Below, in pieces: positions 24,028-50,933 of a stretch of 64,000 nucleotides of DNA (positions are counted from its first letter, which is position 1; the number at the start of each line of letters is the position of its first letter). A program made the translations under genes and the position numbers. Under the pieces are notes generated by a model. That model ran no database searches, was not told the DNA's origin, and saw only the letters and a program-made list of their open reading frames with translations. Source of the stretch: an uncultured Actinomycetes bacterium (GTDB lineage Bacteria > Actinomycetota > UBA4738 > JACQTL01); assembly GCA_963772375.1 (NCBI GenBank), contig CAVYXG010000001.1:856086-920085 (forward strand), read 5' to 3'.

Positions 24028-24042
24028 GGTGCGGCCGGGAGC

Positions 24043-26030: not shown

Positions 26031-26113
26031 GCGAGAGTGGCGAAACGGCAGACGCGCCGGACTTAGGATCCGGTGCCCGAAAGGGCGTGGGGGTTCGACT
26101 CCCCCCTCTCGCA
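26031..26113 (+). tRNA. tRNA-Leu (TAG), intact; attachment site for downstream islands
   Basis: Acceptor GCGAGAG/CTCTCGC. Anticodon loop CTTAGGA. Long variable arm TGCCCGAAAGGGCGT. T-arm GGGGGTTCGACTCCCCC. Confidence 0.85.
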
Positions 26114-26633
26114 CCCCCTCTGACCTGCGGATCTTTGGTCAGAAGGACCACGAACGGGATCCGCCGCCAACCGAGGAATGGCCTTCTTGCCCACGCTTGC
26201 TCACGATCGCTCGGTTCGCATAAGAATGATCGAGGCGCGGGCAGGGCCCAGGGCACGTCCAACTTCCGAGAGTCGGTCAAGGTCAAAGCCCCTCAAAGCG
26301 CAAGGCGAGGAAGCCCTCTGACGACTTCTTCCGTGGCGGCCTCGGGGCGCGGTCGTCGGCCGCCGGTCTACGGGGCGCAGGCACTGAGCAACGGACCTCG
26401 CGCTGGCAGCCTCATGTAGTTGCCTCCATCTACAGCCGGCGGCACGTTCCATCCGGCGCGGACCCTGAGCTCGGGTTCCGCGTGGCCCGACGGATGACCT
26501 CCCGGACCAGGTCTTCACTGATGCTCGGCCAGTAGCACTCGACCAAGAAGGTCGCCGTGGTTCCTCCCATCGATCCGGGGGCCGTCGGAGAGGCTCTCGA
26601 ACTCAGCCAAGAGCCCTCCATGGAGTCTTCCCG

Positions 26634-27602
26634 CTAGCTCGGTCGCGGCCCCCAGTCCGGAGAGCTGTCGAAGATTGCCGAGTGGGTCACGTTGCGGAGC
26701 CCGGAGCCGTCCAAGTTCATGACCCAGATATCCGGATTCGATGGCTGCCCATCCACGCCGAGGTTATGAGAGACCGTGATCATCGTCCCGTCAGGGGAGA
26801 AGGAATAGGACCCCCACTGGTGGAAGCCGTTGAAGGTGTGGGTGATCCGGTGCAGGCCGCTCCCGTTCGGGTGGACCAGATACAGATTGTCCGTGCGGTC
26901 CTGCCCATCGTAGGACTCGAGCAGGATCCACCGCCCGTTCGGCGACCAGTCGGGGCCGTCACCCGCGTGCAGTCTCCAGGGGCTGACCCGCCGCACGTGC
27001 GTTCCGTTCAGGCGGATGGTGAAGACGGCATGCTGGCCGGATTTGCCGTTCCCTTGGAACACCAGGCGGGTTCCGCCAGGGGACCACTGGGCGAACTGAC
27101 CCTCATACTTGGTCGGTGTGACCTGGCGGACATGAGTGCCGTCCGCCTGCATCACGAACACCGCCACCAGGCCGATCGAATCGTCGTATCGAGTGAATGC
27201 GATCCGCTTCCCGTTCGGCGACCAGGCGGGATAGACATCGTCAACGCTCGGGTCCTTGCTGATCTGGGTGAGGTGCGTTCCGTCGGGCCTCACCTTGAAG
27301 ATTCTGGTGGGTTTGCAGGAACACACGGCGGCCTGCCGATAGAAGGCGATCCACCTGCCGTCCGGGGACCAGTCTGGCTCTGTGTCGAGGAAGACCTTCC
27401 CCCGGTGCGTGATCTGCCTCACACCGATGCCGTTGGGCCTGATGGTGAAGATTGCCCCCAGGGTGTGGTCGTCGTTGAAGTACCGCCGGAACGTGATGCG
27501 GCCGTTCTTCCCAGGCGCGGTCGCGCCGGCGGAGGGGGAGCTCGACAGCATTGTCACCAACGCCGCTGTGACTGCCGCCACGAAGACGATGAAGCGTTTC
27601 AT
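26634..27602 (-). CDS. secreted TolB-like beta-propeller protein (PD40/WD40-like repeats)
   Basis: Signal peptide MKRFIVFVAAVTAALVTML followed by repeated DWSPDGRWIAF / AWSPNGKRIAF / QWSPGGTRLVF / DWSPNGRWILL blades. Confidence 0.8.
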   Translation of the reverse strand: MKRFIVFVAAVTAALVTMLSSSPSAGATAPGKNGRITFRRYFNDDHTLGAIFTIRPNGIGVRQITHRGKVFLDTEPDWSPDGRWIAFYRQAAVCSCKPTRIFKVRPDGTHLTQISKDPSVDDVYPAWSPNGKRIAFTRYDDSIGLVAVFVMQADGTHVRQVTPTKYEGQFAQWSPGGTRLVFQGNGKSGQHAVFTIRLNGTHVRRVSPWRLHAGDGPDWSPNGRWILLESYDGQDRTDNLYLVHPNGSGLHRITHTFNGFHQWGSYSFSPDGTMITVSHNLGVDGQPSNPDIWVMNLDGSGLRNVTHSAIFDSSPDWGPRPS

Positions 27603-27677
27603 GCTCAGGTTCCCCTTTCGATAGGGCGGAACGGGGGGAATGCAGCCCCGACGGGGCCGTCGGAGTGCTGTCGCAGA

Positions 27678-28136
27678 TCAGTCGATGTGCATCGTCCCGT
27701 CGTAGACGTCGACGATCAGCGGCAAGGTGGAATCCGGGGTGCCCGCCAGGGTTCCGCTGCCGTGGAGCTTCGCGAAGGCCCCAGTCCCGTCAGTGACGTT
27801 CCAGGTTCCGATGGTCGAGCCGTCCTCGAAGTTCAGCGTCACCCGCAGCAGCACCTCGAACGTGTCGCCCGGGCTCCCCGCACAGGCGAACAGCTTCCCG
27901 ATGAGGATCTGGGCGTGGCCACCCCCGCCCCCGACGAGTCCGCTGTTGAAGGCGTTGGTGACGACTCCAGATGGGCAGACTGGCCCGGTGGCGGTGAACG
28001 GGTCCGGCGGTTGGGCCGTGGTCTGGACGACGATGTGCACGGCTTGCGATGTCGAGGCCCCCGCCGGGATCGCCAGCGTCCCCGCGCCCGCCACCAACAT
28101 GGCGGTGAGGCTCAGAACGATCAGTGGTCGCTTCAT
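27678..28136 (-). CDS. secreted hypothetical protein
   Basis: 152 aa from ATG 28136. Signal peptide MKRPLIVLSLTAMLVAGAGTLAIPAGAS. Confidence 0.55.
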   Translation of the reverse strand: MKRPLIVLSLTAMLVAGAGTLAIPAGASTSQAVHIVVQTTAQPPDPFTATGPVCPSGVVTNAFNSGLVGGGGGHAQILIGKLFACAGSPGDTFEVLLRVTLNFEDGSTIGTWNVTDGTGAFAKLHGSGTLAGTPDSTLPLIVDVYDGTMHID

Positions 28137-28306
28137 ATGGATCTCCCTTCCGAGTTCGTCTCCGGACTCAACAGGCGACGTTCGCGCACTGCGCCGGGCC
28201 AGCGAGATGAACATCGCAGTCACGCGATCGAGCCCCAACGACTGAACTTCTCCTCATGGATGTCCTCCTCGCAACCTCTCGTTCCGAGTCGGTTGGTGAC
28301 GTCTCG

Positions 28307-28918
28307 TCAAGTGACACCCTCCTCTACGCTGGAAGCCGCCTCGGCCAGAGCAGCGGGAGGCCCCGATATCCCGGTGAGGAGCTCGAATGCCGCATCAACC
28401 TCGGATGGAGCGTTGTTTGGGATCGCGGGCATGAAGGCCCGATCGCCGATCTCCCACGAGATGATCTCGGCGCCCTGTTCGTAGCCGCGAAGCGCCCACG
28501 GCTCCTCCCGGCTGTTCCAGGCATCGAGGCCTCGGAGCCGAAGGAAGCGCGACTTCAACTCGGCCGGAACGTTCGCATCGAGCCAGATGTGGCCCATCTC
28601 GTGGAGCAGGGTCCCTCGGCTCAACTCGTCGACATGCGTCGTGCACATGTCGACCGTGCCGTCCGCCGCGTAGCCGGTCGTGCCGCCGCACTCAGATAGA
28701 TCCTCGTGGAACCGCACCTCCACGTCGGGCGGGTCAAGCCTTGCGACCTCGAACCGACCGATCGCCCACCGAACGAGTCGGAGCTGATCGGGCCGGCCAC
28801 CCACGACCACGACCCGTGGATTCCGCCACGAGATGTGGGTCCCGACCTCCGAGCCCCCTCCCACGGTGAAGACTGCGAGCACCGCGATCAGAGCCCGGAA
28901 CGGCTTGCCGTTGCCCAT
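28307..28918 (-). CDS. secreted putative HExxH zinc metalloprotease
   Basis: 203 aa from ATG 28918. N-terminal hydrophobic signal. LLHEMGHIWLDANVP motif. Confidence 0.55.
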   Translation of the reverse strand: MGNGKPFRALIAVLAVFTVGGGSEVGTHISWRNPRVVVVGGRPDQLRLVRWAIGRFEVARLDPPDVEVRFHEDLSECGGTTGYAADGTVDMCTTHVDELSRGTLLHEMGHIWLDANVPAELKSRFLRLRGLDAWNSREEPWALRGYEQGAEIISWEIGDRAFMPAIPNNAPSEVDAAFELLTGISGPPAALAEAASSVEEGVT

Positions 28919-29090
28919 GGGCCGAGGCTCGCGGCCGGGCCTGGAGGTCCAGGTGGAAATCGCTGGAAGAACGCGTGAGGTCTTGGGCTTCACGCGTTCT
29001 TCAAGGACCGAGGTTCAGGGTTCCGGCATGAACCGGCGATCGTTGGGAGCCAGCCTTCCCACCCGGGAACGGGCGGCGTACCGTGCGACC
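28919..29090. promoter_or_regulatory. divergent intergenic region between the secreted-protease gene and the giant SARP-kinase-STAND gene
   Basis: 172-bp gap between divergently transcribed starts. Confidence 0.35.
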
Positions 29091-32000
29091 ATGCGCTTCC
29101 TGGTCCTCGGGCCCCTCGAGGTCACGAACGCCGTCGGGCCGATCCCGCTCGGCGGTCCCAAGCAGCGCCTCGTCCTCGCGAATCTCGCCGTGCGAGCGAA
29201 CGCGGTCGTCTTGGCAGAGACCCTGATCGATCAACTCTGGGGGGACGAACCCCCCGACTCGGCAAAGAACACCCTCCAGACGTACATCTCGCACCTGCGC
29301 AAGGCCCTCGGCCCCGATCGGATCGAGGGGCGTTCTTCCGGGTACGTGCTCCACCTCGACCCTCACGAGCTCGACGCCACGCGGTTCGAGCAGCTTCTCG
29401 GGGAGGCCCGGGCCGCTGACGGACAGCCCGATCGCGTCGGCGGGATTCTGCGAGAGGCACTCGCGATGTGGCGAGGATCGGCGTTCGCCGACCTCGCCGT
29501 CGAGGGATCCCTGGCCGGCGAGATCGCCCGGCTCGAGGAGCTCCGCCTCGGGGCGATCGAAGACCGGATCGCCGCGGATCTTGCATCGGGCCGCCATACC
29601 GGCTTGATCGGCGAGCTCGAGGGCCTCACGCGAGAGCATCCGCTGCGCGAACGCCTCTGGGCCCACCTGATGGTGGCGCTCTACCGGTCCGGCCGGCAGG
29701 CGGACGCCCTCGCGGCGTTCCGGCGGGCCCGCAAGCTCCTCGCGGAGGAGCTCGGCGTCGACCCGTCGCCCGAGCTCCAACGCCTGCAGGATCGAATCCT
29801 CAAGCAGGATCCCGATCTGGAGGTCACGGGGGAGCCCCTCCGCGGCTACCGGCTGCTCGACAAGATCGGGGAGGGCGCGTTCGGACTCGTCTACCGGGCG
29901 GTGCAACCGCAGGTCGGCCGCGAGGTCGCGATCAAGTCGATCCACCCCGAGCTCGCCAACCAACCCGACTTTGTCCGCCGCTTCGAGCACGAGGCGCAGG
30001 TCGTGGCACGCCTGGAGCATCCGCACGTCGTGCCGCTGTACGACTACTGGCGCGACCCCGACGGGGCGTACCTCGTCATGCGGTTGCTGCGCGGCGGGAG
30101 CCTCGAGGATCTGCTCGAACAGGGACCACTGGACTCCACTCGCGCCGCTACCTTCCTGGACCAGGTCGCCGGCGCGCTCGCCGCCGCACACCGCCAGGGC
30201 GTCGTGCACCGGGACGTCAAGCCGGGCAACGTGCTGCTCGACGAGGAAGGCAACGCCTACCTCACGGACTTCGGCGTCGCCCTCGATGCGGGCGCGCCCG
30301 AGCAGACCGCGGGGCTCATGGTGCGCGGCACGCCTGCCTACCTCTCCCCCGAGCAGATCCGCCTCGAGCCCGCGACGGGCCAATCCGACATCTACGCGCT
30401 CGGCGTGGTGCTGTACGAGATGCTCACCGCCGAGCATCCGTTCCCCGAGTCCTCTCTCCGGGTGCTGCTCGACCGGCACATGCACGAACCGCTCCCCTCG
30501 GCTCGAAGGGTTCGACCCGAGATTCCGCCTGCGGTCGACTTGGTGATCGCCCGGGCGACCGCGAAGGACGCGGGAGGACGATTCGCCGACCCGCTCGAGT
30601 TCGCGGCCGCGTTCCGCGGGGCGATCCAGGGGACGGGCGCCCGCCTCGCCGCGACCGAAGAGCTCCGCAACCCCTACAAGGGGCTCCGCGCGTTCCTCGA
30701 GGCCGACGCGGGCGACTTCTTCGGCCGCGATGTCGTGACGAGGCGGCTGGTCGAACGTATGGCTGAGCCGGGTGCCAGTGCGAGGTTCCTGTGCATCGTG
30801 GGGCCCTCGGGCTCAGGCAAGTCCTCGGTGGTGAAAGCCGGCTTGGTCCCGGCCCTGCGCCGCGGCGTGATCGCCGGATCAGAGCTCTGGTACATCGTCG
30901 AGATGATGCCGGGCCCGCATCCGCTGCGTGAGCTCGACACCGCGCTGCTGTCGGTGGCGACCTCGCCGCAGCCCACGCTGGTGGAGGAGCTCGAGCGCGA
31001 CGACCTCGGACTGCTTCGGGCCGTGGACCGGGTCCTCCCCGACCCCTCGGCCGAGCTCGTGATCGTGGTGGATCAGCTCGAGGAGGTGTTCACGCTCGTC
31101 GACGACCAGGTCGAGCGGGCACGGTTCCTCGAGGCGATCGTCGCCGCGGCGACGCACCGAATGAGTCGGGTACGCATCGTGTCGACGCTCCGCGCAGACT
31201 TCTTCGATCAGCCCTTGTCGGTGCGCGGCTTCGGCGACCTGCTCGCCGCCCGGACCGAGGCGATCACGCCGATGTCACCCGAGGAACTGGAGCGCGCGAT
31301 CTCCGGTCCAGCCGAGTGCGTCGGGCTCGGTATCGAGCCCGGCCTGGTCGCGGCGATGGTCGCCGACGTCGTCGATCGTCCGGGCGCCTTGCCCTTGTTG
31401 CAATATGCGCTCACCGAGCTCGTCGAGCGGGACGAGGTCTCCTCGCTCTCCCTCGAGAGCTACCGGTCGATCGGCGGAGTCTCGGGCGCCCTCGCCCGGC
31501 GCGCCGAACGGCTCTACGGGGCGATGGACGAGCCCGGACGAGACGCGTGCCGCCAGCTGTTCCTGCGTCTCGTTACGCTCGGCGAGGGCACCGAGGACAC
31601 TCGCCGCCGCGTCCGTCGATCCGAGATCCCGGCCATGGACGGAGCGACGGACGGGGTGATCGAATCCTTCGGCCGCCACCGCCTGCTGTCCTTCGATCGC
31701 GACGCGCTGTCGCGAGAGCCAACCGTCGAGATCGCCCACGAGGCACTGCTTCGCCAATGGCCCCGTCTCGAGGACTGGTTGGGGGAGGACGCGGAAGCAC
31801 GGGCGCTCCGGGGCCACCTGATCGACGCGGCACGCCAGTGGGATGCGGGCGGCCGCGACGACTCAGAGCTCTATCGGGGCGCCAGGCTCGCGGGGGCGCT
31901 GGACTTCTCCTCCCGGGACGGCCGGCACTTGAACGAGCTCGAGCGGAGCTTTGTCGCGCTCAGTCGGGAGGCGAGCGAACGGGAGACGAGGCGGATCCGT

Positions 32001-34367
32001 AGGACGAACCGGCGTCTGCGCGGCCTGCTCGGTGCGGTCGCACTCTTTCTGGTGGTCGCGTTGATCGCCGCCGGCATCGCGCTCGTGCAGGGAGGCCATG
32101 CGCGGCGCTCGGCGACGGTCGCGCTTTCCCAGAGCCTCGGGGCCCAGGCGATCGCCGAGACACAGCTCGACACCGCACTGCTGCTCGCCGAGGAGGGCGT
32201 GAACCTGGACGACTCCCTACGAACGGAGAGCGACCTACTGGCTGTGCTGCTCCACAGCCCCTCAGCGATCCACGTCCTACATGTCGGCGGGATCGGCGCC
32301 CCTCCGGAGGACATCGTCGTGAGCCCCGACGGCGGGACGCTCGCCGTGCTGACCCGGGATCGCACCCTGCGGTTCTACGACACTTCGACGCTCCAGCCGA
32401 TTGGCAAGCCGGTGCACGACGTGCCCGCGTACAACTCCCGCAGGCCGGCGTTCACCCCCGACAGTTCCGGGCTCTGGGTCCTCCGCGGACCCGGGATCCA
32501 GATGATCAACGTTCGGACCGGCCGGGTCGAGAGCACGATCAGGCTCCACCAGGATGTGGAGAACGTCTACTCGCCCGTTCTTCTCTCTCGGGACGGCCGG
32601 GTCGTGTACCTCCAACTCGAGGGATGGGAGAGCGTCGCAGCGTGGAACACCTCGACGGGACGCCGCCTGGCCGAGGTCAACGTCCCCGGGCTGTCGCTCG
32701 GGATGCTCGCCCTCGCCCAGGAAGCGGGAGAGGTCGTGGCGCTCACGACCCAGGGCGGAGGGCGAATCCAGGTCCGGGACGGCAGGACGCTGGCCCTGGA
32801 GCGGTCGTTTCCCGTGCAGCTTCCTGCGGCGGACCAGTACCAGCTCGCCGTTTCACCGGACGGGCGCACGGCCGCTTGCACCCTGTTCCACCCCGGCGCC
32901 GACCAATCGATCCGATTCGTCGACCTTCGGACCGGCCAGGTCAGGAAGGGCGCCGGCGACCAGGCGGGCGAAGGCCAGGTCGCGTTCTCCCACGATGGCA
33001 GGACAGCCGTCAGCGTGACCGACGACGGCTTCAATATCTCTGTCTGGGATGTCCCTTCGGCCACGCAGGTTCGAACGCTGAGCGGCCACGCCGGAGAGAT
33101 CCTGCAGGCCGCCTTCGATCCCTCGGGGCGAACCCTTTACTCTGCAGCGGATGACGGGAACGTGTTCGCGTGGGATCTCTCGGGACATCGGAGCTTCGGT
33201 CGCTCGTTCACTGCCAGCCAAGGGTCATTCGGTGGGCCCAACGTCGGTCACCATTTCCCATACTTCTCCGCGTCCCCGGATGGGAAGAGCATCGCAGTCG
33301 CCCACGCGACGCAGTTCGATCCCGATGGGGGGGTCAGCACGGGCGGCGAGGTCAATATCGTCGACCTCGCTACCGGGCGGGTCACGACCCGGGTAAGGGT
33401 CGCGGGTCGAGTGCCCGGCATCGACTCGGTCATCTACGCGGAGTTCTCCCCGGACGGCACCGAACTCCTCGTCACCCCCGGCCCCTCGAGCAACGGAGAC
33501 ATCACCCTGTGGCGGTTGGATGGTCACACGGCCAGCCTCGTCCGCACGTTCACCGGACTCAGCGCGACCCCGGTTCGTGACGATAACGGGTTTTGGAACG
33601 CCCCCTGGGCGACGTTCAGCCCTAACGGCAAGTGGATCGCCGGGGTGGACCGACGCGAGAACGGCACCAGCCGAATGATGGAATGGGATGCCGCCACGGG
33701 ATCCGAGCGCGTGGCGCCCCTGGATCTCCATTGGACATCCACCGACGGCCTGCATTTCGATGGCCTCAACCAGAACGTGGTGTATAGCCCCGACGGGTCG
33801 TTGATTGCAACGTCCGTCTTGGGTGACCGTACTGTGATCGTGGACGCAAGGACGCTGAAGCCGGTCCGTACGCTGCCTGATCCAGAAGGGGTCGCGTTCG
33901 TCGCGTTCTCACCGACTAACGACAGGCTGCTCGCGGAGGGGTCGTCGAATGTGGGAATCGTTCGCCTGATTGACGTGACGACAGGCAAACAGGCGGCCGA
34001 AGTAACGGCCTCCAACCCGGGACTGTGGAGCGTCCAGTTCGACCACACCGGGAGCATGCTGCTGACAGATGCGCCGGATGGTGTGGCGCGGTTGTGGTCC
34101 GTCCCCGACCTCCAGCAGATCGGATCCGACCTTCCAGGCCTCTCTAGCGTGGTGGGGGCGGCCACTTTCGCGGGCCGGGGAAGGTCCACGATGGCCGTGC
34201 TCCTTTACGCGACCGGCACGGCGTTCGCATACACGGCGTCGCCCTCCGCGTGGGAGCGCCAGGCGTGCCTCGTGGCCGGTCGAAACTTCACGAAGGCGGA
34301 GTGGGCCCGATACGTCGGCGACCGTACGTACGAGGATGTCTGCCCTGAGTATCCGCCCGGATCCTGA
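29091..34367 (+). CDS. multidomain signal-transduction protein: SARP (OmpR-wHTH+BTAD) - Ser/Thr protein kinase - NB-ARC/STAND P-loop NTPase - TM helix - WD40 beta-propeller
   Basis: Starts MRFLVLGPLEV (SARP). Kinase motifs GEGAFGLVY, VAIK, HRDVKPGNVLL, DFG, APE. P-loop GPSGSGKSS. Single TM LLGAVALFLVVALIAAGIALV. Then many WD repeats (LSGHAGEILQAAFDPSGRTLYSAADDGNVFAWDL). 1758 aa. Confidence 0.85.
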   Translation: MRFLVLGPLEVTNAVGPIPLGGPKQRLVLANLAVRANAVVLAETLIDQLWGDEPPDSAKNTLQTYISHLRKALGPDRIEGRSSGYVLHLDPHELDATRFEQLLGEARAADGQPDRVGGILREALAMWRGSAFADLAVEGSLAGEIARLEELRLGAIEDRIAADLASGRHTGLIGELEGLTREHPLRERLWAHLMVALYRSGRQADALAAFRRARKLLAEELGVDPSPELQRLQDRILKQDPDLEVTGEPLRGYRLLDKIGEGAFGLVYRAVQPQVGREVAIKSIHPELANQPDFVRRFEHEAQVVARLEHPHVVPLYDYWRDPDGAYLVMRLLRGGSLEDLLEQGPLDSTRAATFLDQVAGALAAAHRQGVVHRDVKPGNVLLDEEGNAYLTDFGVALDAGAPEQTAGLMVRGTPAYLSPEQIRLEPATGQSDIYALGVVLYEMLTAEHPFPESSLRVLLDRHMHEPLPSARRVRPEIPPAVDLVIARATAKDAGGRFADPLEFAAAFRGAIQGTGARLAATEELRNPYKGLRAFLEADAGDFFGRDVVTRRLVERMAEPGASARFLCIVGPSGSGKSSVVKAGLVPALRRGVIAGSELWYIVEMMPGPHPLRELDTALLSVATSPQPTLVEELERDDLGLLRAVDRVLPDPSAELVIVVDQLEEVFTLVDDQVERARFLEAIVAAATHRMSRVRIVSTLRADFFDQPLSVRGFGDLLAARTEAITPMSPEELERAISGPAECVGLGIEPGLVAAMVADVVDRPGALPLLQYALTELVERDEVSSLSLESYRSIGGVSGALARRAERLYGAMDEPGRDACRQLFLRLVTLGEGTEDTRRRVRRSEIPAMDGATDGVIESFGRHRLLSFDRDALSREPTVEIAHEALLRQWPRLEDWLGEDAEARALRGHLIDAARQWDAGGRDDSELYRGARLAGALDFSSRDGRHLNELERSFVALSREASERETRRIRRTNRRLRGLLGAVALFLVVALIAAGIALVQGGHARRSATVALSQSLGAQAIAETQLDTALLLAEEGVNLDDSLRTESDLLAVLLHSPSAIHVLHVGGIGAPPEDIVVSPDGGTLAVLTRDRTLRFYDTSTLQPIGKPVHDVPAYNSRRPAFTPDSSGLWVLRGPGIQMINVRTGRVESTIRLHQDVENVYSPVLLSRDGRVVYLQLEGWESVAAWNTSTGRRLAEVNVPGLSLGMLALAQEAGEVVALTTQGGGRIQVRDGRTLALERSFPVQLPAADQYQLAVSPDGRTAACTLFHPGADQSIRFVDLRTGQVRKGAGDQAGEGQVAFSHDGRTAVSVTDDGFNISVWDVPSATQVRTLSGHAGEILQAAFDPSGRTLYSAADDGNVFAWDLSGHRSFGRSFTASQGSFGGPNVGHHFPYFSASPDGKSIAVAHATQFDPDGGVSTGGEVNIVDLATGRVTTRVRVAGRVPGIDSVIYAEFSPDGTELLVTPGPSSNGDITLWRLDGHTASLVRTFTGLSATPVRDDNGFWNAPWATFSPNGKWIAGVDRRENGTSRMMEWDAATGSERVAPLDLHWTSTDGLHFDGLNQNVVYSPDGSLIATSVLGDRTVIVDARTLKPVRTLPDPEGVAFVAFSPTNDRLLAEGSSNVGIVRLIDVTTGKQAAEVTASNPGLWSVQFDHTGSMLLTDAPDGVARLWSVPDLQQIGSDLPGLSSVVGAATFAGRGRSTMAVLLYATGTAFAYTASPSAWERQACLVAGRNFTKAEWARYVGDRTYEDVCPEYPPGS

Positions 34368-34372
34368 CTTAG

Positions 34373-34447
34373 CTTAGGATCCGGTGCCCGAAAGGGCGTG
34401 GGGGTTCGACTCCCCCCTCTCGCACCACGTCTGGCCTGCGGATCTTT
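34373..34447 (+). repeat. direct repeat of the tRNA-Leu(TAG) 3' half (att-like junction copy 2)
   Basis: 53 nt identical to tRNA positions 33-76 (TTAGGATCCGGTGCCCGAAAGGGCGTGGGGGTTCGACTCCCCCCTCTCGCACC) plus a conserved CTGnCCTGCGGAT flank. Starts 6 bp after the stop of the giant gene. Confidence 0.85.
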
Positions 34448-34722
34448 GCACAGACCGACCCGCCCTCGGCTCGACCGAGAAGGCCCGAATGGCCTTCTTG
34501 CTCACGCTTGCTCACAGAACTCCAATCGACGTTGGACCTGGGCGGTGGCTTCCGTGTCAGGGCCACCATCCCCACTGGACCCATGACTGAACCGCCCCGT
34601 GCTTGCCTGAGGCTAGACCCGCGAGATGCCATGCTGACCCGATCGTCCCACCCCGATGCTGGAGCCGGTTCAGAGGGGTGTGGGCTACTGGTGTCCGAAG
34701 CGCGCGTTAGGCAGCCACTACC

Positions 34723-35940: not shown

Positions 35941-36306
35941 CCGGAGTTGGCATCGACGTGTTCGTGGTTGACGCTGTCGCGGCTGTCGACCCAGGTCCGC
36001 AGGATCTCGTACGTGGCTCCTGCTCCCGTCGGGGCGCCGTTCGCGATGTCGATGATCGGCGCGGGGGACATCCATTCCTCCGAGCGCGACCCGTTGAGCC
36101 GCATGTCCCTGAAGCTCCGAGATCGCGTGCGAGTAGGTGTCGAGTGTGATCGTCACCGACAAGTGCCCGAACCGTTCGGACACCACCTTGACGTGCACGC
36201 CGGCCTGCAGCGACAGCGTCGCGTGGCACAGCGCAGTTCATCGGTCAGCGTCTGTTCGCGGCGATATGGAGCCGCATGCCCCATGTGAGCATGTCAGGCT
36301 CGGGAC

Positions 36307-37842: not shown

Positions 37843-37957
37843 CCGGTCCACTTGCTCACACCCTGCTCACGACAGATCGGGACCGGGTGCCATGGAACGA
37901 CACCAGACGACACGAATCGACGCGTCCACGCCCGGTTCGTGCGTGGCCGTACCCGCT

Positions 37958-39621: not shown

Positions 39622-39738
39622 AGGCGGGTTCGGCTCAGGACCCTTGAACACCCCGTTCGGACCGGTGTTGATGTAGGAGTCGACGAGGCGCTCCAGCTGG
39701 TCTCACCTGTTCCAGAAATCAGCGTGGCCGATGTACCC

Positions 39739-39781
39739 GGTGGGGGATCCCCCCTCTCGCACCCTCTTGAGCTGCGGATCT
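39739..39781 (+). repeat. degenerate tRNA-Leu 3'-end copy (T-loop deleted)
   Basis: GTGGGGGATCCCCCCTCTCGCACCCTCTTGAGCTGCGGATC matches the T-stem/acceptor/flank of the repeat family with an internal deletion. Confidence 0.5.
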
Positions 39782-40358
39782 CGCCCTGACGATCCTCGAC
39801 AAGGCCCGTCGACGACGAGCCACTCGGGGCGACAGACCCACACCTCGGTGAGCTTCCCATCGTGGACATACGAGACGACCGCCACGTTCGATTCGAGGGT
39901 CCGCCCCCCCGCGGGTTCGCTTCTGAGGCCGCAGCCACCCACCGCACATGCACCTGGGCCATGACCTCCCGGCCGCCGGGACAGGCCGGGCCAGGCTTGC
40001 CCTTGCCTCGGCCCGTGGTGCCGGCATTGGAGAACCGCTCCGTCCACACGCAGCAGGTCCACCACTTCGGGTGGGCATTGTGCATGAGGTCGAGGCACAT
40101 CCAGGCCACCACCTCGCGGGCCTCCGGCACCGGCTCGCCCTGACACCGGAAGTGGAGGGGCCGGGACCGCACGGAGTCCGGCGAAGGCGAGCCAGGTCAG
40201 CACGGCTGGCGGATGGCACCGATGCGCTGGTCAGAGCACGAATCGGAGTCTGGCGCCTTGAGGTATCGTACTTGTCCTTCACAGGGGGGCGGGGGTCTGT
40301 CCCCTTGGCACGTTCGGGAGGAGGTCGCCCATGGCGCCCTTCAGGAGGGAGGTCGCTC

Positions 40359-43106: not shown

Positions 43107-43265
43107 GGAGGGCGCAAGGGGTCCTGTCGTGTGCGGGGGCTCGCGTGCACTCGACCGTGGTAACCGCGCTAGGCTGGGGCGCCTCTCTAGTGTCCTGAGT
43201 CAGAAGTTCACAGGATGTTCACGAGGATGTCCCCAGGCATGGCTCGCGTCGTGCCAGGATGCGGT

Positions 43266-43772
43266 ATGGCCCGAGGACGACCGCTCCAGGAGCTCGCGGT
43301 GAGCGAGGAGGACCGGCAGGTGCTGGAGCGGTTCACCCGCCGGACCACCACGTCGCAGGCCCTTGCCCTGCGATCGAGGATCGTCCTGCGATCGGCCGAG
43401 GGCGCCACCAACCGGGAGGTGGCCCGGCAACTGGAGGTGACGCCCCAGACCGTCGGGAAGTGGCGGGCCCGCTACATCGAACGAGGCGTCGAGGGCCTCC
43501 TGGACGAGCCCCGGCCCGGGGCCCCCCGGAAGGTCACCGACGACAAGGTGGAGGAGGTCGTGGTCAAGACCCTCGAGTCCAAGCCGACCGACTCCACCCA
43601 CTGGTCCTCAAGGGACATGGCCAAGCGAGTGGGGCTGTCGCAGTCCACCGTGGCCCGGATCTGGCGGGCGTTCGGACTGCAGCCGTGGCGGAGCGAGTCC
43701 TGGAAGCTCTCCACCGACCCCCAGTTCGCTGCACCGATGGGCAACCGACGAGCCAACCCGTCGGTTCGATGA
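43266..43772 (+). mobile_element. IS630-family transposase N-terminal fragment (copy A)
   Basis: HTH/winged-helix region LQELAVSEEDRQVLERF...NREVARQLEVTPQTVGKWRARY...STVARIWRAFGL. No DDE domain follows. Confidence 0.6.
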
Positions 43773-43785
43773 CCTGTACAACCTC

Positions 43786-45220
43786 GTGTACGACCCGGCG
43801 TTCCTAGTGGTGGCATGGCGCCGGGTCCGTGGCAACAAGGGCGCCCGCACGGCCAGGGGTGGACGGGCAGACCGCCCGATCCATCGAGGCCGGACGGGGC
43901 GTGGAGGCGTTCTTGGACGATCTGCGGGCCGACGTCAAGGCCCGTACGTTCACCCCACTCCCCGTGCGGGAGCGGACCATCCCCAAGCCAGGAGGAACGA
44001 AGGTGAGAAGGCTGGGGATTCCCACGGTCCGCGACCGCGTCGTCCAGGCGGCCCTCAAGCTGGTGCTCGAGCCCATCTTCGAGGCGAGCTTTCAGCCGTG
44101 TTCGTACGGCTTCCGTCCGAAGCGCCGGGCCCAGGACGCCATCGCCGAGGTGCACTTCTTCGCCTCTCGTACCTACGAGTGGACGGTAGAAGGCGACATC
44201 GAGGCGTGCTTCGACCAGCTGTCGCACTCCGGCATCATGGACCGGCTGCGGCGGCAGATCGGAGACAAGCGGGTCCTGGTCCTGGTGAAGGCGTTCTTGA
44301 AGGCCGGCATCCTCAACGAGGGTGGGGCCGACGAGCACCCGATCACCGGCACGCCCCAAGGGGGCATCCTCTCACCGCTGCTCGCCAACATCGCCCTGTC
44401 CGTCCTCGACGATCACTTCGTCGAGGCGTGGGAGGAGGCGATGTCCACCGAGTACGCACGCCACAAGCGGCGCCGACAGGGACTGGCCAACTACCGCCTG
44501 GTCCGCTTCGCGGACGATTTCGTGGTGCTGGTGTCCGGGACCAGGGAGCACGCGGAGGCGTTGCGTGAGGAGGTGGCGACGGTGCTCGCGCCGATGGGAC
44601 TGCACCTGTCGGCGGAGAAGACGAGGATCAGCCACATCGACGAGGGGTTCGACTTCCTGGGCTTTCGCATCCGGCGGGAGCTCAAGAGGGGGACGGCGAA
44701 GCGCCACGTCTACACCTACCCTTCGAAGTCCGCGCTCGCGGCGGTCAAGGCGAAGGTGCGGGCGCTGACCCGACAGGCATGGAACCAACCGCTCAGCACC
44801 CTGATCCGCCGGTTGAACCCGGCGCTTCGGGGGTGGACCAACTACTTCCGGCACGGGGTGTCGAAGGCGACGTTCAGCTACCTCCGGTCCTTCGTCTGGT
44901 ACCGGGTGATCCGCTGGCTTCGCCGCAAGCACCCTCGGGCCTCATGGAAGGAACTGCGGCGGCGATACCTCGATCGGTGGTGGCCGCGGCACGGCGAGAA
45001 GGAGCTGTTCAACCCCGGCGCGGCGGTCGTCAGCAGATACCGCTACCGGGGGAACCGCATCCCCTCGCCGTGGTCGGAGCGGACCGGGCTGACGGCGGGG
45101 TAGTCACCGGCATGGATCGTGGAGAGCCGGATGCGTGGAGACGCGCACGTCCGGTTCGGAGGTGCGGGTCGGGGAAACGGGCTGATCGAAAGACGGCACC
45201 GCGCCCCGGCCCGACCCTAC
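43786..45220 (+). mobile_element. group II intron remnant: RT/maturase ORF (N-terminal frameshift) plus domains V-VI; 5' domains I-III missing
   Basis: RT motifs (RRLGIPTVRDRVVQ, FVRFADDFVV, maturase/X domain). Frame change near 43855 between the AWRRVRGNKGA and VDGQTA segments. Domain V GAGCCGGATGCGTGGAGACGCGCACGTCCGGTTC at 45123-45156. Intron ends ...CTAC at about 45220. Confidence 0.7.
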
Positions 45221-45802
45221 TCGTCGGCGGAGATCACGAACTCCCCAGCGTGCAGGCGCCTTCCCTTCCACCGCCGCTCGTACAGGTCGAGCGCCCGGGC
45301 GGCCTTGGGCTCGAAGTCGGGATCGCGGGGGAAGATCCAGCTCCTGAAGGTCCACGGCCGGATGGCGTCCTGCGACAGCCACCGCCAGATGGTCGAGTCC
45401 GACACGCTCGCCACGATCCCCCGGCGCAGGACCTCGGAGCGGATGTCGGGGACGTGCAGGCGGGAACGTGGGACGCCGAGCTCCGTCGGGAGCTGGCAGG
45501 CCAGTGCTTTGACCTCAACGACCACCAGAGGGGGAAAACGAGCTGGGTCTTCCCCGGCGGGGCCGTTCATCCAGTCCGGCAAGCCCCTCCTCGAGGAAGC
45601 GCTTGCGCCACTTCCACACGAGTTCGCGAGGAGTGTCGAGGCGGTGGGCGATCTCCTCGACTGGGACGTCATCGGCCGCCATGAGCACGATCTTCGCTCG
45701 GATCACATCTCGATACGGTAACGAGTACTTCCGGGCCCGTGCCTCCAGGACAGCCCGGTCCAGTGGGCCCAGACGCACGGTCAGTGGGCTCGTTCGCGAC
45801 AC
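45217..45802 (-). mobile_element. IS630-family transposase fragment (copy B), truncated at the group II intron junction
   Basis: N-terminal HTH (95-aa ORF) and, after a frameshift, the middle part ending ...GEFVISADE exactly where the intron 3' end abuts. Confidence 0.6.
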
Positions 45803-45879
45803 GGCATCCCCCTTCGTCGGAGGATACCGTACTTCAGAAGGGCGTCAGAATCACGTTAGTGTAATTCTGACGGCATGTA

Positions 45880-45952
45880 CTTAGGATCCGGTGCCCGAAA
45901 GGGCGTGGGGGTTCGACTCCCCCCTCTCGCACCCCTTCTGACCTGCGGATCT
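45880..45952 (+). repeat. direct repeat of the tRNA-Leu(TAG) 3' half (copy 4) with extended downstream homology to copy 1
   Basis: Perfect 53-nt core. A further roughly 90 bp downstream (45998-46087) is about 85% identical to 26181-26277, including ATGGGCTTCTTGCTCACGCCTGCTCAC. Confidence 0.85.
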
Positions 45953-46518
45953 TCGGTCAGAGCGGTCTCGGATGTGGCCCGGGAGAAGACGCGAGATGGG
46001 CTTCTTGCTCACGCCTGCTCACGATCGCTCGGTTCGAATGAGGATGATCGAGGCGTCGGCAGGGCCCCATGGCCACGTCCAACTCTGTCCTCGTTAGCGA
46101 AGAGCGCTTCGATACGGGCTCCCATGTCGGGGAGGCTGCCATGGCTGGCCTGGACACTCAGCTGAAGCCAGTCCGCTGAAGCCTGCCGCGGAGAAGGGCT
46201 CGTCGCCCCCGGGGACCTGGACTGCGATCAGCGTTGGGAGGCGACTCCCGCGGGGAGGTGCGGGGGCGGAGGGTCAGTCTTTGTCAGCTGCCCAGACGGG
46301 GTTCTGACTTGAGCGCCCATGACGCCCCCCTCTACACGTCTCGGGCTGTCTGGTTACGGCTCCTGCCGGATGATCCTGGCGAGCCGTTCCGCGTCGACGG
46401 GCCCCGCGAGCCAGGTCAAGGGCCACGGGGGACGCCCCATGGACGGCCACGAGATCTCCCCGCTGCTGGCCAGCGGTGGTCCCCATCCGCGGCCACGAGA
46501 AGTCCCCACTTGTCTTGC

Positions 46519-47296
46519 TCAGCCCAGGGGCACCACTCCCTTGCCTGACGTGGCCTCCGCGAAGCGGAAGCTCTTCTCGCCCTCGGTCACGACGACATGG
46601 GCATGGTGGAGCAGCCGGTCGACGGTCGCCGTGGCGAGCGTCTTCGGCATGAGCTCGTCGAAGCCCGCCGGGTGGAGGTTCGAGGACACGGCCACCGAGC
46701 GCCGCTCGTAGGCCGCGTCGATGAGCCGGTAGAACGCCTCCGCGGCCTCCGCCCCCACCGGGAGCATCCCGATGTCGTCGACCACGATGAGATCGGCCCG
46801 GCAGATCCGGGCGATGGCCCTCGCCACCGAGTCGTCGGCGCGGTGGCGTCGGATGATCGCTCCGAGCGTCTCGAGGGAGAACCAGCTCACCCGGAGCCCC
46901 CGCTCCACCGCGGCGCTGCCGAGCGCCTCGAGGAAGTGCGACTTCCCGGTTCCCGACGGACCGCACAGCGCCAGGTTCTCCCGGCGCTGCACCCACTCGA
47001 GCGTCCGCAGGGCGTGCTGGGTGGGACGGGGGATCGAGGAGGCCTGCTCGTCCCACGCCTCGAAGGTCTTGCCGGAGGGAAACCCGGCGCTCCGACGTCG
47101 GTTGGCCATCATGGCCCGATCCCGTCCCGCCACCTCCTCGGCCAGCAGGACCCGCAAGGCTTCGGCCGGGTCCCACCGCTGGGCCTTGGCCGTGGCGAGG
47201 ACGTCGCGGGCCGCCGAGCGCAGGTACGGCAGGCGCAGACGGCGGAGGTGGGCGTCGACCTCGTCGAGGGGAGAGGGATCGATGCTCGAACTCATC
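46519..47296 (-). CDS. istB: IS21-family transposition helper ATPase IstB
   Basis: MSSSIDPSPL... Walker A GPSGTGKSH, DDIG Walker B. 258 aa. Confidence 0.85.
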
Positions 47297-48776
47297 GTCC
47301 GAACCCCTCCCACGCGGTGGTCCCCCGTTGCAGGCTGTGGGCCTCCGTGGCCTGCGAAGTCGGTCCATCCGCCGATGTGTCGTGAGCGAGGATCGCTGCG
47401 AGGTCTCCGTCGGCGAACCGCCCGCACGTCGCGGCGGTCCCCAGGGCTCGGTCGAGCGCCTCCGGCCCGTACAGCTTCGAGAGCTCGAGGGCCTCGGCCA
47501 TCTTGGAGCGGATGCGCGCGGCGCCGACCGATGCCGCCTCGATGAGCCACTGCGTCGCGCCGTTCCCCAGGGCGAGGAACGCCTGCTCCTCGGGCGTGCG
47601 AGCTCGGGGGACCCTGGCCAGGGGCCCGGAGGGCCGCTGCGGGTAATGCGCGTCGTCGATCATGGGTCGGCCCGGCGTCGATCGGCGGTGGCGGGCCACC
47701 TCCCGTGCTCCGGCAGAGGGGTCGACCGAGACCACCACCACCTGGTCCCCCTCGGTGCGGACCCACACCCGGCGGCCGATGAGCGAGTACGGCACCGAGT
47801 ACAGGACGCTGTGGAACGACACCACGGAGTTCGACGCGACCGTGCGGGTCTGCCCGAACGCGGTGGTGTACGCCTCGCCGGGGACAGGATGCAGGCGCCG
47901 TCGCTCCTCGGCCAGCAGCTCCGCCGGCGGACGGCCCGTGGCCCGGTGGGGCCGGGCGTTGACCCGTTCGCAGAACGCCTCGCACGCTGCCCGGAGCTCT
48001 TCGAAGGAGCGGTACGCCGGCAGCAGGTTCGCCTCGGTGGGGACGAGGTCGGCCTTGGCGATGCGCACCGTTGCCTCCGAGCCGCCCTTGGACTCGGGGT
48101 CGGCGGGGACGCACGTCGCGATGGTCAGGCCGTAGTGCCGGGCCGCGGCCACGATCTCGGGATGGCGAACGGGGATGCGGGCGATGTGGGTGGTGGTCAC
48201 GGTCTTCTCGTTGTCGGTGAGGCCGTACGTCGGGACGCCCCCGAACGCCCGAAGGGTCCGGTCGATCCCCGCGACCACGGTGGGGAGCGTCTTGTCCAGG
48301 ATCGGGAACACGACGCGGTAGCGGCTCCACGCCAGCCAGGCGCAGAACAACTGCGTGGGGCCCTCGGGGACCTCCGGCCCGGTGCCGTAGTCCCACTGGA
48401 ACCACATCCCGGGCTCGGGGATCCACGGGCGGTACACCCGCAGCCGTCCCTCGCGGAAGCGCTGCCTGGCCCCGGCCACGGCCCGCCTGGTCGTCCGCTC
48501 CGAGCCCTCGTAGCCGAGCGCGATGAGCTTCTCGTGGCAGCGGTCGGCGCGGATCTTGCCGTGGGAGCGCTCCACCCACTCCTCGATCTTCGGCAGGAGT
48601 GGATCGATGAGCTTCGGACGGTCGATCCCCGAGGATGGCGACCGCCCCCCGTCCCGGAGCGCGACGTAGCGCTCGACGGTGTGATGGTCGACCCCCGCGA
48701 GCTCCGCCGCGGCGCGGTAGGAGCCAGTCAGGTCGAAGGCCTCCAGCATGTCCATGATCTCCTCGTCAGACTTCAT
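47292..48776 (-). CDS. istA: IS21-family transposase IstA
   Basis: 494 aa. HTH N-terminus. DDE region (WFQWDYG...TDNEKT). Confidence 0.85.
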   Translation of the reverse strand: MKSDEEIMDMLEAFDLTGSYRAAAELAGVDHHTVERYVALRDGGRSPSSGIDRPKLIDPLLPKIEEWVERSHGKIRADRCHEKLIALGYEGSERTTRRAVAGARQRFREGRLRVYRPWIPEPGMWFQWDYGTGPEVPEGPTQLFCAWLAWSRYRVVFPILDKTLPTVVAGIDRTLRAFGGVPTYGLTDNEKTVTTTHIARIPVRHPEIVAAARHYGLTIATCVPADPESKGGSEATVRIAKADLVPTEANLLPAYRSFEELRAACEAFCERVNARPHRATGRPPAELLAEERRRLHPVPGEAYTTAFGQTRTVASNSVVSFHSVLYSVPYSLIGRRVWVRTEGDQVVVVSVDPSAGAREVARHRRSTPGRPMIDDAHYPQRPSGPLARVPRARTPEEQAFLALGNGATQWLIEAASVGAARIRSKMAEALELSKLYGPEALDRALGTAATCGRFADGDLAAILAHDTSADGPTSQATEAHSLQRGTTAWEGFGR

Positions 48777-49792
48777 CTGCCTCCCTCTCCAGGGGCCGAC
48801 TGCGGACTTGGACGTGCGCAGTCAAACCCGGGGAGGGAGGTCCTCCTGGGAGCAGGAAACGGTCAGTTGACGTCAGGCCGGGGAGATGTCCCGGCCGCGG
48901 GTGGGGAATCCTGGTGGCCGCCAGTGGGGAGTTCCGTGGCCGCCGGTGGGGAGCTTTTCACGGCCGCCGACAACTCCCGCCGCCACCCGCCAGCAGGTGC
49001 TCGAAGGACACGTTCCCGTCCGGATGCCGGACGAGCCGGAACCAGGCGGGGATCTCCGTCTTCAACTCCTGACCCGCCATCAATGCGGGGCCGATCTCAT
49101 CGGAGTCCCGGGGCAGCGTCACGCCGTCGCCCCGCCACGGCGGCGGCTCAGAATCCATCTCCCCTCCTCCCACCGACGGGCATGGACGCGAACGTGACGC
49201 CGTTGCACGGTTCCGACGGCACGGCCGATGCGCCTCACGTCGCACTCCAGATGCTGAACCCGCCCTCGGCCGACCTCAGGTTGTTCGTGCCGACGACGGC
49301 CCGGATTCCGAGATAGCGAAGGGCCCGTCCGAAGACCGGCCCTTCATGTCAGGTCTCGTTGCCCTACGAACCTTGCGGCCCGCCGGTCACCGCGTCCCGA
49401 CAGGTGCGGACGATAGCGGGCCACCGCTTCCCCGGGCAAGCTCAGGACCTGTTCTTGTCCCTCTTTCTTCTCATCCCCGTACATGAGCCAGATTCAGGCA
49501 GTTCACGAATCGGAGGTCGGGAGGTGGACGCCAACATGTCCGACTACGATCCGCCGCTGTTCCTCATCGAGACACCAGTAGATGCCGGCGCACGTGGCGC
49601 CACAACCGCGAGACGTCGTTGGCCCGGCGCTAGCGGGTGAGGGAGCCTGAGCGATACGACGGCCGGGCCCGGACGCCGCCTTCTCTCCACGGCGTGAGAC
49701 ACCCGGGAGGCCCTGGGATGAGGAGTCGACTGGCCCTGAACCGCCCCGCCCGTCGGCGCTCACGCTGATCCAACGGCCGCAGGAGAACGCCC

Positions 49793-50245
49793 GTGATCGC
49801 GATCGAGGAATGCATCGTCATCGATCTCCCCCGTCGGCGGGTCTTTCCGGTCGCGGCCAGACCCGAGAACATGCCGCTGTGGAACTCAGCGGTCCTCGAG
49901 AGCGAGCTCGACGGCGCACTCATGGAGGGCACACGGGTCGTTCAGCGCATCCATCTCTTGGGCCGCCGGTTCCAGACCGCCTTTCGGGTGACCTGCTACG
50001 AACCCCCGCGCCAGATCACGTACACGAGCACCGCGGGGCCGATGGACATCCGAGGAACCATGGAATTCGTCCCCCTGCAAGGCCGAACGCTCGTTCGGTG
50101 GACCGTGGCCGGTAGTGGTCGAGACTTCTTCCGGGTCGGGGAGGGCGTCCTCGTCAGGGCCGGCCGGCACGAGATGCGCTCCTGCCTGGAGAACCTGAAA
50201 CGCTTCGTGGAGCAGACTGCGTCGATCCCAGCCGGGAGTCGATGA
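49793..50245 (+). CDS. SRPBCC-superfamily protein (polyketide cyclase/dehydrase-like)
   Basis: 150 aa with a START/Bet v1-like pattern (IEECIVIDLPRRRVFPVAARPENMPLWN...). Confidence 0.65.
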   Translation: MIAIEECIVIDLPRRRVFPVAARPENMPLWNSAVLESELDGALMEGTRVVQRIHLLGRRFQTAFRVTCYEPPRQITYTSTAGPMDIRGTMEFVPLQGRTLVRWTVAGSGRDFFRVGEGVLVRAGRHEMRSCLENLKRFVEQTASIPAGSR

Positions 50246-50520
50246 CGTAGTCGGCCACCTCGATCACGCCTCACTCCAAGGCCTTGACACGGAGGTCTCG
50301 AGATCAAGGGTTCTGCTCCCCGTTCTGCCGCCCCGTCTCGCGCTCGCGGCGATCCCGGGTGACCGTCGTATGGGAGTTGCAGAAGGCGTCGTAGGGGGCG
50401 GCACGGTCACCCAGCCCGGATGACGCAAGGGGCCTCTTCAGATGGGTCCCGTCACCACGGCGTCACCACGTAGGAGCACCGGCGAGCCCGCCGAGGACCT
50501 ACGGCAGCACAGCCTCCCAG

Positions 50521-50585
50521 GTCAGAAGGGGTGGGCGAGGGGGGAGTTGAACCCCCACCCGGTTGCCCGGACAGGATCCTGAATC
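50521..50585 (-). repeat. inverted 3'-half fragment of a tRNA-Leu(CAG)-like gene
   Basis: Reverse complement reads anticodon stem-loop CAGGA-TTCAGGA-TCCTG, variable arm TCCGGGCAACCGGGT, T-arm GGGGGTTCAACTCCCCC, acceptor CTCGCCCA. No matching 5' half. Followed by a CTGCTCACGCCTTGCTCAC arm-like motif. Confidence 0.6.
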
Positions 50586-50724
50586 CTGTCCCTGAACCGC
50601 TCGACCAATGCGAGATCCTGCTCACGCCTTGCTCACGACGGCTCGATTCTGACCGGCATTGGACAACACATAACGGCACTGGCCGAGGCGGACGTCGTGG
50701 GTCTCGTGCCTGCCGGCACTCGCT

Positions 50725-50795
50725 TTAGGATCCGGTGCCCGAAAGGGCGTGGGGGTTCGACTCCCCCCTCTCGCACCCCCTCTGACCTGCGAATC
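50725..50795 (+). repeat. direct repeat of the tRNA-Leu(TAG) 3' half (copy 5)
   Basis: Perfect 53-nt core plus CCTCTGACCTGCGAAT flank. ATGGCCTTCTTGCTCACGCTTGCTCAC follows about 70 nt downstream. Confidence 0.85.
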
Positions 50796-50933
50796 TTCGT
50801 TTCCTGCCGGCCCTCCGACCCTTCGCGACCAGGTCGGAAATGGCCTTCTTGCTCACGCTTGCTCACAGGGACGGCACCCAGACACTTCGTGCGATGCTTG
50901 AACCAGGGGGGTGAGATCTGGATCAGCCTGCCG

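Follow-up and report, generated by a model that had tools for sequence, protein, structure and literature searches.

The tRNA-Leu(TAG) gene and its repeated 3' half

The locus lies in a 64,000-nt stretch of the genome of an uncultured Actinomycetes bacterium (GenBank assembly GCA_963772375.1, contig CAVYXG010000001.1, positions 856,086 to 920,085), hereafter the window, in which an intact tRNA-Leu(TAG) gene is followed by direct repeats of its own 3' part, candidate attachment (att) sites of a family of tyrosine-integrase elements. Transfer RNA genes were called with ARAGORN and Rfam, protein domains were assigned with Pfam, defence genes were sought with PADLOC and the folding of the repeat flanks was assessed with alifold. 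ARAGORN placed the tRNA gene at 26031-26115 on the plus strand, and the Rfam tRNA model matched 26031-26113 (57.7 bits). The 53 nt from the anticodon loop (TTAGGATCC) through the 3' end (TCTCGCACC) of this gene form a string, TTAGGATCC...TCTCGCACC, which occurs exactly five times, always on the plus strand, at 26063, 34374, 37958, 45881 and 50725. An earlier note on this DNA, made by a model from the letters, had described the tRNA gene and four exact copies of its 3' half, and this was borne out: a 27-nt subpattern of the core, searched with 3 mismatches allowed, gave five matches in the window and none in 100 shuffles. The cores, named c1 to c5 from left to right, with c1 being the 3' 53 nt of the tRNA gene itself (26063-26115), are spaced by 8311, 3584, 7923 and 4844 nt. 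All start at the identical base, preceded by C (c1, c2 and c4) or T (c3 and c5), and have in common the 3' flank CTCTGACCTGCG(G/A)AT, both as the note had it. The copy with a deleted T-loop that was also reported there is real; it lies with its 3' flank at 39739-39790 (plus strand), where 39748-39781 is 91% identical to 26100-26134, and is decayed.

An intact target tRNA at one end, followed by direct repeats of its 3' part, is the arrangement of a tRNA-targeting integrative element. No tRNA 5' half was found at c2-c5 by ARAGORN, Rfam or inspection of the flanks, and three unitigs from an independent assembly of read set ERR11718635 were 100% identical to the window. Two of the three begin within a core (at 26106 and 37983), as expected of a true multi-copy repeat. 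An assembly artefact or a tandem duplication of the tRNA gene with intact 5' halves, which the earlier note had named as findings that would overturn its interpretation, is accordingly very unlikely. Look-ups of three window proteins returned only the window-identical ERR11718635 unitigs and hence no strain variation.

The repeated unit exceeds 53 nt, homology extending 140-206 nt 3' of every core at 80-84% identity. Within this right arm stands a motif repeated in tandem, CTTGCTCAC-N-CTTGCTCAC, some 125/135 nt after the start of the core (at 26188, 34499, 46006 and 50850), of which only a degenerate version, CCTTCCTGAGCACCTTCCTCAC, is present after c3 (core 37958-38010, repeat 37958-38100). 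At the tRNA gene, an attL-type junction, the right (P') arm of segment 1 (26116-26264, plus strand) contains TGCCCAC-N3-TGCTCAC at 26188-26204 and matches the arm that follows c4 with 84% identity over 206 nt. Two TGCTCAC sites follow c2 (core 34374-34426, sites at 34499-34515, repeat 34374-34515) and c4 (core 45881-45933, sites at 46006-46022, repeat 45881-46084), and c5 (core 50725-50777, repeat 50725-50870) has a perfect right arm with CTTGCTCACGCTTGCTCAC at 50848-50866; all these repeats are on the plus strand. Upstream, c3 and c5 share about 105-110 nt of homology (78.6% identity). This left (P) arm consists of two TGCTCAC sites at -105/-94, then ACGACAC-like repeats, and CGTGCCTGG directly before the core. 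Before c3, where it belongs to segment 2 (37850-37957, plus strand), the TGCTCAC sites stand at 37853 and 37864 and are followed by GAACGACAC/AGACGACAC repeats and CGTGCGTGGCC; before c5, where it belongs to segment 4 (50615-50724, plus strand), they stand at 50619 and 50630. No left arm was found before c2 or before c4, though both cores are perfect.

Within the 64 kb, paired TGCTCAC sites are confined to six att arms, and the 19-nt pair gave 4 matches in the window against 0.03 expected. Their fixed offsets, -105/-94 on the left and +114/+124 or +125/+135 on the right, hold both here and in independent contigs, so that arm-type motifs flank the core to the left and to the right; 12 sites from different contigs share the conserved left arm and 17 the conserved right arm. 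Two kinds of direct repeat at helical spacing around a tRNA-derived core are the layout of lambda-type attachment sites, in which integrase binds the arm-type sites and excisionase binds the left arm. We infer that TGCTCAC would be the arm-type site of the integrase and ACGACAC the site of the excisionase. A structured RNA in the arms was considered and dropped, since alifold gave no conserved fold for the left arm (-0.65 kcal/mol vs -4.1 +/- 2.5 for shuffled columns).

Junction classes and the integrase family

When metagenomes were scanned with a 44-nt part of the core, 43 soil contigs were recovered, which were sorted by their flanks; the counts that follow are of non-redundant sites and include soil-metagenome contigs, related loci and the copies in the window. 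The intact tRNA gene was followed by unrelated sequence at 17 sites (empty or with unrelated occupants) and by the right arm at 9, a left arm preceded the core at 8 sites, and at 4 the core was flanked by both arms (tandem-element junctions, or attP), so that attB, attL, attR and attP-like junctions all occur in nature. A variant right arm with a single TGCTCAC was present in soil contigs L087, L101 and L114. The same 44 nt were identical in all 43 contigs despite many different flanks; every incoming element would carry the identical core sequence, and the perfect cores of the window therefore need no selection or special explanation.

Contigs L107/L108 are syntenic with the window (a gene for a debranching enzyme, GDE, then tRNA-Leu, the right arm and an nSTAND1/WD40 giant), and in L125-L130 tRNA-His, tRNA-Lys and tRNA-Leu are followed by a similar array whose cargo is different. 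A 1.5-kb unit in L122 is made up of tRNA-Leu, one hydrolase-cyclase gene and a left arm with a second core; a compensatory pair in the variable arm distinguishes this displaced core from the tRNA copy, which would be expected had the resident 3' half been replaced by that of an incoming element. In L085/L105 the unit is of about 1 kb. A blastn search of plasmids and phages with the att region of c3 returned only short, unrelated tRNA-like matches, and the exact core had 0 matches in viral contigs. The GDE protein encoded upstream of the tRNA gene had its best genome-contig matches (65-67%) in Thermoleophilia/Solirubrobacteraceae and other Actinomycetota metagenome-assembled genomes, and at none of the 15 loci with the best matches did a tRNA-Leu lie near the GDE homologue; an exact look-up of the GDE protein with a guessed start gave no match. 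The gene 3' of the tRNA in L106, which is the closest relative, has no match in the window, and tblastx of the metagenome contigs against the window, noisy at this GC content, delimited no right chromosomal flank.

The description of the array as integrase-less in the earlier note stands in so far as Pfam detected no intact integrase in the 64-kb window, on either side of the tRNA, but the locus does retain an integrase fossil. On the minus strand at 36085-36237, 48 codons (HATLSLQAGVHVKVVSERFGHLSVTITLDTYSHAISELQGHAAQRVA) correspond to residues 336-383 of relatives of 394 aa, including the catalytic-tyrosine box, and are 79% identical (E ~1e-17) to a C-terminal integrase fragment in L088, where the open reading frame (ORF) beside the right arm is a Phage_integrase C-terminal fragment whose stop codon falls within the TGCTCAC site. 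The fossil belongs to segment 2, where it is flanked by a cyclase-type gene and a family 4 (GT4) glycosyltransferase gene. No other integrase pieces, nor remains of an excisionase or primase, were found in the window by tblastn. Integrase fragments also occur in L125 (83 aa) and L131.

A full-library search yielded a full-length representative of 391 aa, P0121, and a follow-up search found seven full-length genes at 87-100% identity, the next relatives being only about 50% identical. The full-length integrases of L134 and L136 (393-394 aa, 87-92% identical to reference P0121) lie near tRNA-Leu and the same arm. Two independent contexts, L134/L135 and L136/L137, share the gene order tRNA-Leu(TAG), right arm, a cargo stretch of 0.8-5 kb, the integrase pointing to the tRNA, HTH_3, a divergent HTH_17 gene with an excisionase-like fold, and a primase (Prim-Pol/AAA_25 or DUF3631). 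The cargo slot between right arm and integrase is matched by segment 2 of the window (c2, arm, cyclase-type gene, fossil) and by L125 (tRNA, hydrolase-cyclase, 83-aa fossil). When the C-terminal fragment was used as the query, the best 120 matches were all of 68-178 aa; two short matches that were checked lie well within contigs of 19-27 kb, and many others lie on contigs of about 1 kb and were possibly cut by the contig ends.

An integrase partitioned by integration, as in the SSV type, was rejected because the att site lies outside the ORF, the integrase stop codon falling within the right arm, some 120 nt away from the core, and because the fragments lack the N-terminus, which is missing on the side away from att. 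Two further observations concern the family. The full-length integrase of L133 adjoins a gene for a phosphoesterase that also occurs in L125, at a distance of about 8 kb from the tRNA-Leu array there. In L134 a 66-aa integrase fragment (13301-13501) lies about 0.6 kb past the far side of the tRNA-Leu gene (12597-12681).

Cargo of the segments

The GC content of the array is 0.64-0.71, compared with 0.73-0.75 directly upstream. The cargo region of segment 1 (26265-34373), which has no left arm, encodes a PD40 beta-propeller protein (26634-27602, minus strand), a 186-aa ORF (27678-28238, minus strand) and a BTAD-Ser/Thr kinase-nSTAND1-WD40 protein of 1844 aa (28833-34367, plus strand), whose ORF ends 5 nt short of c2. 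The stretch directly 5' of c2 (CCGCCCGGATCCTGACTTAGC) looks like a scrambled anticodon stem-loop. The giant of about 1880 aa with the same domains in L107/L108 occupies the same slot after tRNA-Leu and is 32% identical to that of the window. A defence island was considered and dropped, PADLOC having given only generic kinase-domain matches, which on the segment 1 giant were to the kinase domain only, and weak cyclase matches.

Segment 2 carries a gene with Ad_Cy_reg and cyclase domains (34723-35940, plus strand) in the slot between right arm and integrase, and the GT4 glycosyltransferase (36307-37842, plus strand). Segment 3a, between c3 and the decayed copy, carries an alpha/beta-hydrolase-adenylate cyclase fusion (38281-39621, plus strand), an architecture also found beside tRNA-Leu att sites in L122 and L125. 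Genes with a cyclase domain recur as cargo next to att sites (34723-35940 and 38281-39621 in the window, L122, L125 at 10257-11597, L136 at 7187-10315 and the L107 giant). The adenylate/guanylate-cyclase-domain cargo proteins of different contigs are just 30-48% identical to one another, which points to a recurring type of cargo and not to one travelling cassette.

Segment 3b (39948-45880), with no left arm before c4, begins with a 1052-aa M1-peptidase/Big_3_5/pentapeptide protein (39948-43106), within whose ORF ARAGORN called a tRNA-Ala(CGC) (42856-42928, minus strand); Rfam reported no tRNA there at E <= 1, and the call is probably a false positive. An HTH_32 ORF (43215-43772), a group II intron reverse transcriptase-maturase (43829-45103), intron domain V/VI (45122-45220, Rfam 48.9 bits) and an inverted HTH fragment 34% identical to the HTH_32 ORF (45518-45844, minus strand) follow. 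No 5' ribozyme domains of the intron were detected, the HTH_32 ORF filling that space, and the stretch 43215-45844 may be an intron fragment between two IS630-like remnants.

The cargo region of segment 4 (46274-50245) includes an IS21-family istA-like transposase gene (47292-48776, minus strand) and an SRPBCC/polyketide-cyclase-like gene (49793-50245, plus strand). One unitig of the independent assembly stops at 49329, suggesting that an element has its boundary at that point. An inverted, 5'-truncated remnant resembling tRNA-Leu(CAG), with a right-arm-like 3' flank (50515-50606, minus strand), is directly adjacent to the left arm of c5; its Rfam tRNA score of 26.8 bits is under the gathering score.

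Beyond c5 lies a probable further island (50934-62000) for which no closing core was found; its GC content of 0.65-0.73 is mostly under the 0.70-0.75 found to the left of the tRNA. It encodes a P-type ATPase-hemerythrin protein (50934-53540, minus strand), an SBF-family transporter (55348-56754, minus strand), a Pyr_redox_2 fragment and IS21 istB/istA (58490-60427, minus strand). The C-terminal hemerythrin domain makes the ATPase, directly after c5, an uncommon fusion. The two IS21-family elements (47292-48776 and 58490-60427) have diverged, their istA-like products being about 25% identical and IstB being recognisable in the second only. On the other side of the array, the stretch from tRNA-His/tRNA-Lys to tRNA-Leu (18543-26031) varies between loci, with 7.3 kb in the window (two RibD_C genes, a gene for an extracytoplasmic function-type sigma factor with DUF6596, and the debranching enzyme gene), about 4.4 kb in L115 (L115/L096) and a single YkuD gene in L125.

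Origin of the array and comparison with known systems

The five cores are probably attachment sites that arose by repeated integration of one tyrosine-integrase element family at tRNA-Leu(TAG), a reading to which we give a probability of about 0.78, and the array is best explained by elements that accreted in tandem and then decayed through deletion. The earlier note had already recognised the footprint of a tyrosine recombinase in the 3' half of a tRNA gene, repeated at a single tRNA, and the attP-like arms, the four junction classes, the fossil and the full-length relatives all agree with it. In the proposed mechanism, attP would comprise a left arm of about 110 nt (two TGCTCAC sites 11 nt apart, then four or five ACGACAC-like repeats), a duplicate of the tRNA between anticodon loop and 3' end, and a right arm of about 130 nt with two or three TGCTCAC sites 10 nt apart, at or near which the integrase gene, oriented to the tRNA, would terminate. 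Strand exchange, which we place near the anticodon loop, would restore a working tRNA from the element's copy and push the old 3' half downstream. If the tRNA is rebuilt in this way, every core with its right arm is part of the element to the right of it, and every left arm part of the element to the left. Later elements would enter at a regenerated core and build up a tandem array, from which internal deletions would strip the integrase, excisionase and primase backbone while cargo remained between the att sites. In the presumed order of insertion segment 3a, with its degenerate right arm and decayed closing core, looks the oldest. The presence of a right arm at c5 suggests that the array probably continues past 50880.

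Serial decay of islands was one of two origins put forward in the earlier note, and the fossil favours such decay of once-autonomous elements over an origin from integrase-free cassettes. The other, trans-mobilised segments resembling cis-mobilizable elements (CIMEs) or integrative mobilizable elements, fits part of the array. Both arms are kept only by segments 2 (34427-37957) and 4 (45934-50724), which, judged from their sequence, could be excised in trans by a related integrase; 26116-34373 and 39782-45880, which end at the junctions at 34374 and 45881, have no left arm.

Several points weigh against the proposed history. The cores c2 and c4 have no left arm despite being perfect, for which simple accretion with random deletion offers no explanation, and the inverted tRNA-Leu(CAG)-like remnant beside c5 fits poorly. 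The right arm at c5 is not matched by a closing core to its right up to 64000. No intact integrase, excisionase or primase is present in the 64-kb window, so that any present-day mobility is hypothetical. One full-length integrase (P0121, 4426-5601 in L133) has neither a tRNA nor a TGCTCAC arm beside it. None of the loci compared came from a close relative in which the site is empty and the right flank matches, so that no segment has a direct presence/absence comparison. Finally, the function assigned to the arm sites is predicted from their position and repetition only.

The missing left arms speak for a mixed origin. Here some segments, especially 1 and 3b, would have arrived through another family or recombinase that uses the same core without a TGCTCAC left arm, or through recombination at secondary sites. 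The resemblance of the sequence before c2 to a scrambled anticodon stem-loop, the right-arm variant with a single TGCTCAC in three soil contigs and the inverted remnant of a different kind of tRNA-Leu beside c5 are in keeping with this. The right arms of c1, c2, c4 and c5 are nevertheless all of one family, and neither a second type of integrase nor a fossil of one was found in the window; we regard a mixed origin as unlikely.

More doubtful still is an active platform, resembling an integron, in which tRNA-Leu serves as a fixed dock and small att-flanked units without integrases are shuffled in trans by a rare integrase, with no graveyard of decayed elements. In this soil actinobacterial lineage such units, bounded by full attP-type arms and in some cases holding a single gene, would be the normal mobile form, and a few full-length integrases of one family would move them in trans. 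Units of one gene or about 1 kb do stand between the tRNA and a copy of left arm plus core (L122 and L085/L105), segments 2 and 4 retain both arms, and signalling cargo (cyclase, STAND, kinase) recurs in the slot beside the site, but the recurrent cargo is only 30-48% identical and no single cassette was seen moving. Such a platform would also account for fossils outnumbering intact genes by about 10:1 in public data, fragments far exceeding full-length genes (the best 120 matches of 68-178 aa vs seven full-length genes at least 87% identical), yet many of the short matches are on contigs of about 1 kb, whose ends may have cut them. That the units formerly carried an integrase themselves is shown by the fossil in the window and by the fragments of L088, L125 and L131; two junctions are without the left arm needed for excision, and no integrase lies beside the dock, unlike intI next to attI.

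That the repeats are not recombination sites at all, being tandem tRNA duplications or pseudogenes, a tRNA-derived repeat similar to miniature inverted-repeat transposable elements or short interspersed elements, a structured RNA or an assembly artefact, is already largely refuted and hardly credible: the copies are indeed identical and tRNA-derived, but only c1 has a 5' half, the junction classes fit att logic and not fixed-length insertion with target duplications, the left arm has no conserved fold, the independent unitigs reproduce unique flanks and break within cores, and the same architecture appears in many independent metagenome assemblies.

Repeated integration of one element family followed by decay thus remains the preferred account. 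On that account, sequence has given the full att architecture (core, both arms and two kinds of motif) of an uncharacterised family of integrative elements that is common in soil Actinomycetota and whose integrase and backbone are now identified. Through accretion and then deletion a tRNA gene would become a persistent hot spot at which strain-specific genes for signalling and metal resistance collect. If integrase and sites work as proposed, they might provide an integration tool for high-GC bacteria.

ICESt1-type elements of Firmicutes integrate at the 3' end of a protein-coding gene, whereas the target here is a tRNA gene. Tandem accretion and CIMEs have been described for the ICESt1/ICESt3 family of Streptococcus thermophilus (Pavlovic et al. 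2004, as cited in PMC3146451; reviewed in PMC5704250). As summarised there, elements pile up site-specifically at one att site and internal deletion gives att-flanked, integrase-free units that a relative can excise, as proposed for the window. CIME mobility was, according to the same summaries, shown experimentally, in contrast to the predicted mobility here, where two segments are without one arm. Recombination and transfer genes of their own are absent from the segments of the window, as in CIMEs, and complete att sites are present, by sequence, for 34427-37957 and 45934-50724 but not for 26116-34373 and 39782-45880.

The ssrA islands of Dehalococcoides (McMurdie et al. 2011, PMC3146451) also stand in tandem, 3' of a single small-RNA gene whose 3' end recurs as a direct repeat at the boundary of each island, and 15 of them are without the integration module and were read as possible CIMEs or fixed remnants. 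Their integration module lies beside attL on the reverse strand, as in the present element family, but it encodes a serine recombinase, DsiB, and the islands have a 20-bp repeat of the tmRNA gene with insertion in the T-loop (PMC3146451). The window has instead the trace of a tyrosine integrase, a 53-nt repeat that begins in the anticodon loop, and long arms in which motifs recur.

Actinomycete elements classically use sites at which identity extends from the anticodon loop to the 3' end of the tRNA, and an anticodon-loop class of tRNA integration sites was reportedly distinguished by Williams in 2002. The actinomycete integrative and conjugative elements (AICEs) such as pSAM2 and SLP1 (PMC3218068) have in common with this family a high-GC actinobacterial host, a tyrosine integrase, the identity segment from anticodon loop to 3' end, and an integrase and excisionase-like gene near att. 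They differ in that the full-length relatives found here carry Prim-Pol/AAA_25 or DUF3631 primases in place of FtsK-like transfer and AICE Rep genes; neither an FtsK/SpoIIIE-like transfer gene nor an AICE Rep was detected within the window or in the 4-10 kb seen beyond the integrase in those relatives, which are cut by locus or contig ends and may be AICE-like, satellite-like or of another kind. The integrase family is itself set apart from its next relatives by an identity of only about 50%.

Integrons also present a row of promoter-poor cargo units, split by recombination sites, beside a fixed entry point. In the window, however, there is neither an intI beside the tRNA nor an arrangement of attI plus promoter, the units once had their own integrase, and the sites are tRNA-derived with lambda-type arms, the left of which has no consensus fold, and not folded attC hairpins. 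Lacking intI and attC hairpins, the array is not an integron.

A general model is that of tandem arrays of integrative genetic elements, in which the core is restored at both ends and later elements may enter either copy (Mageeney et al. 2020, PMC7192596). As in the window, diverse neighbours accumulate through regenerated cores. The search pipeline of that study needs at least one integrase per unit and so would miss or merge a fossil-only array like this one, and island finders that require an integrase would in the same way pass over such arrays. The process by which they form is already known, and the current understanding of it is unchanged by this locus, which is a clear example from a little-studied soil actinobacterial lineage.

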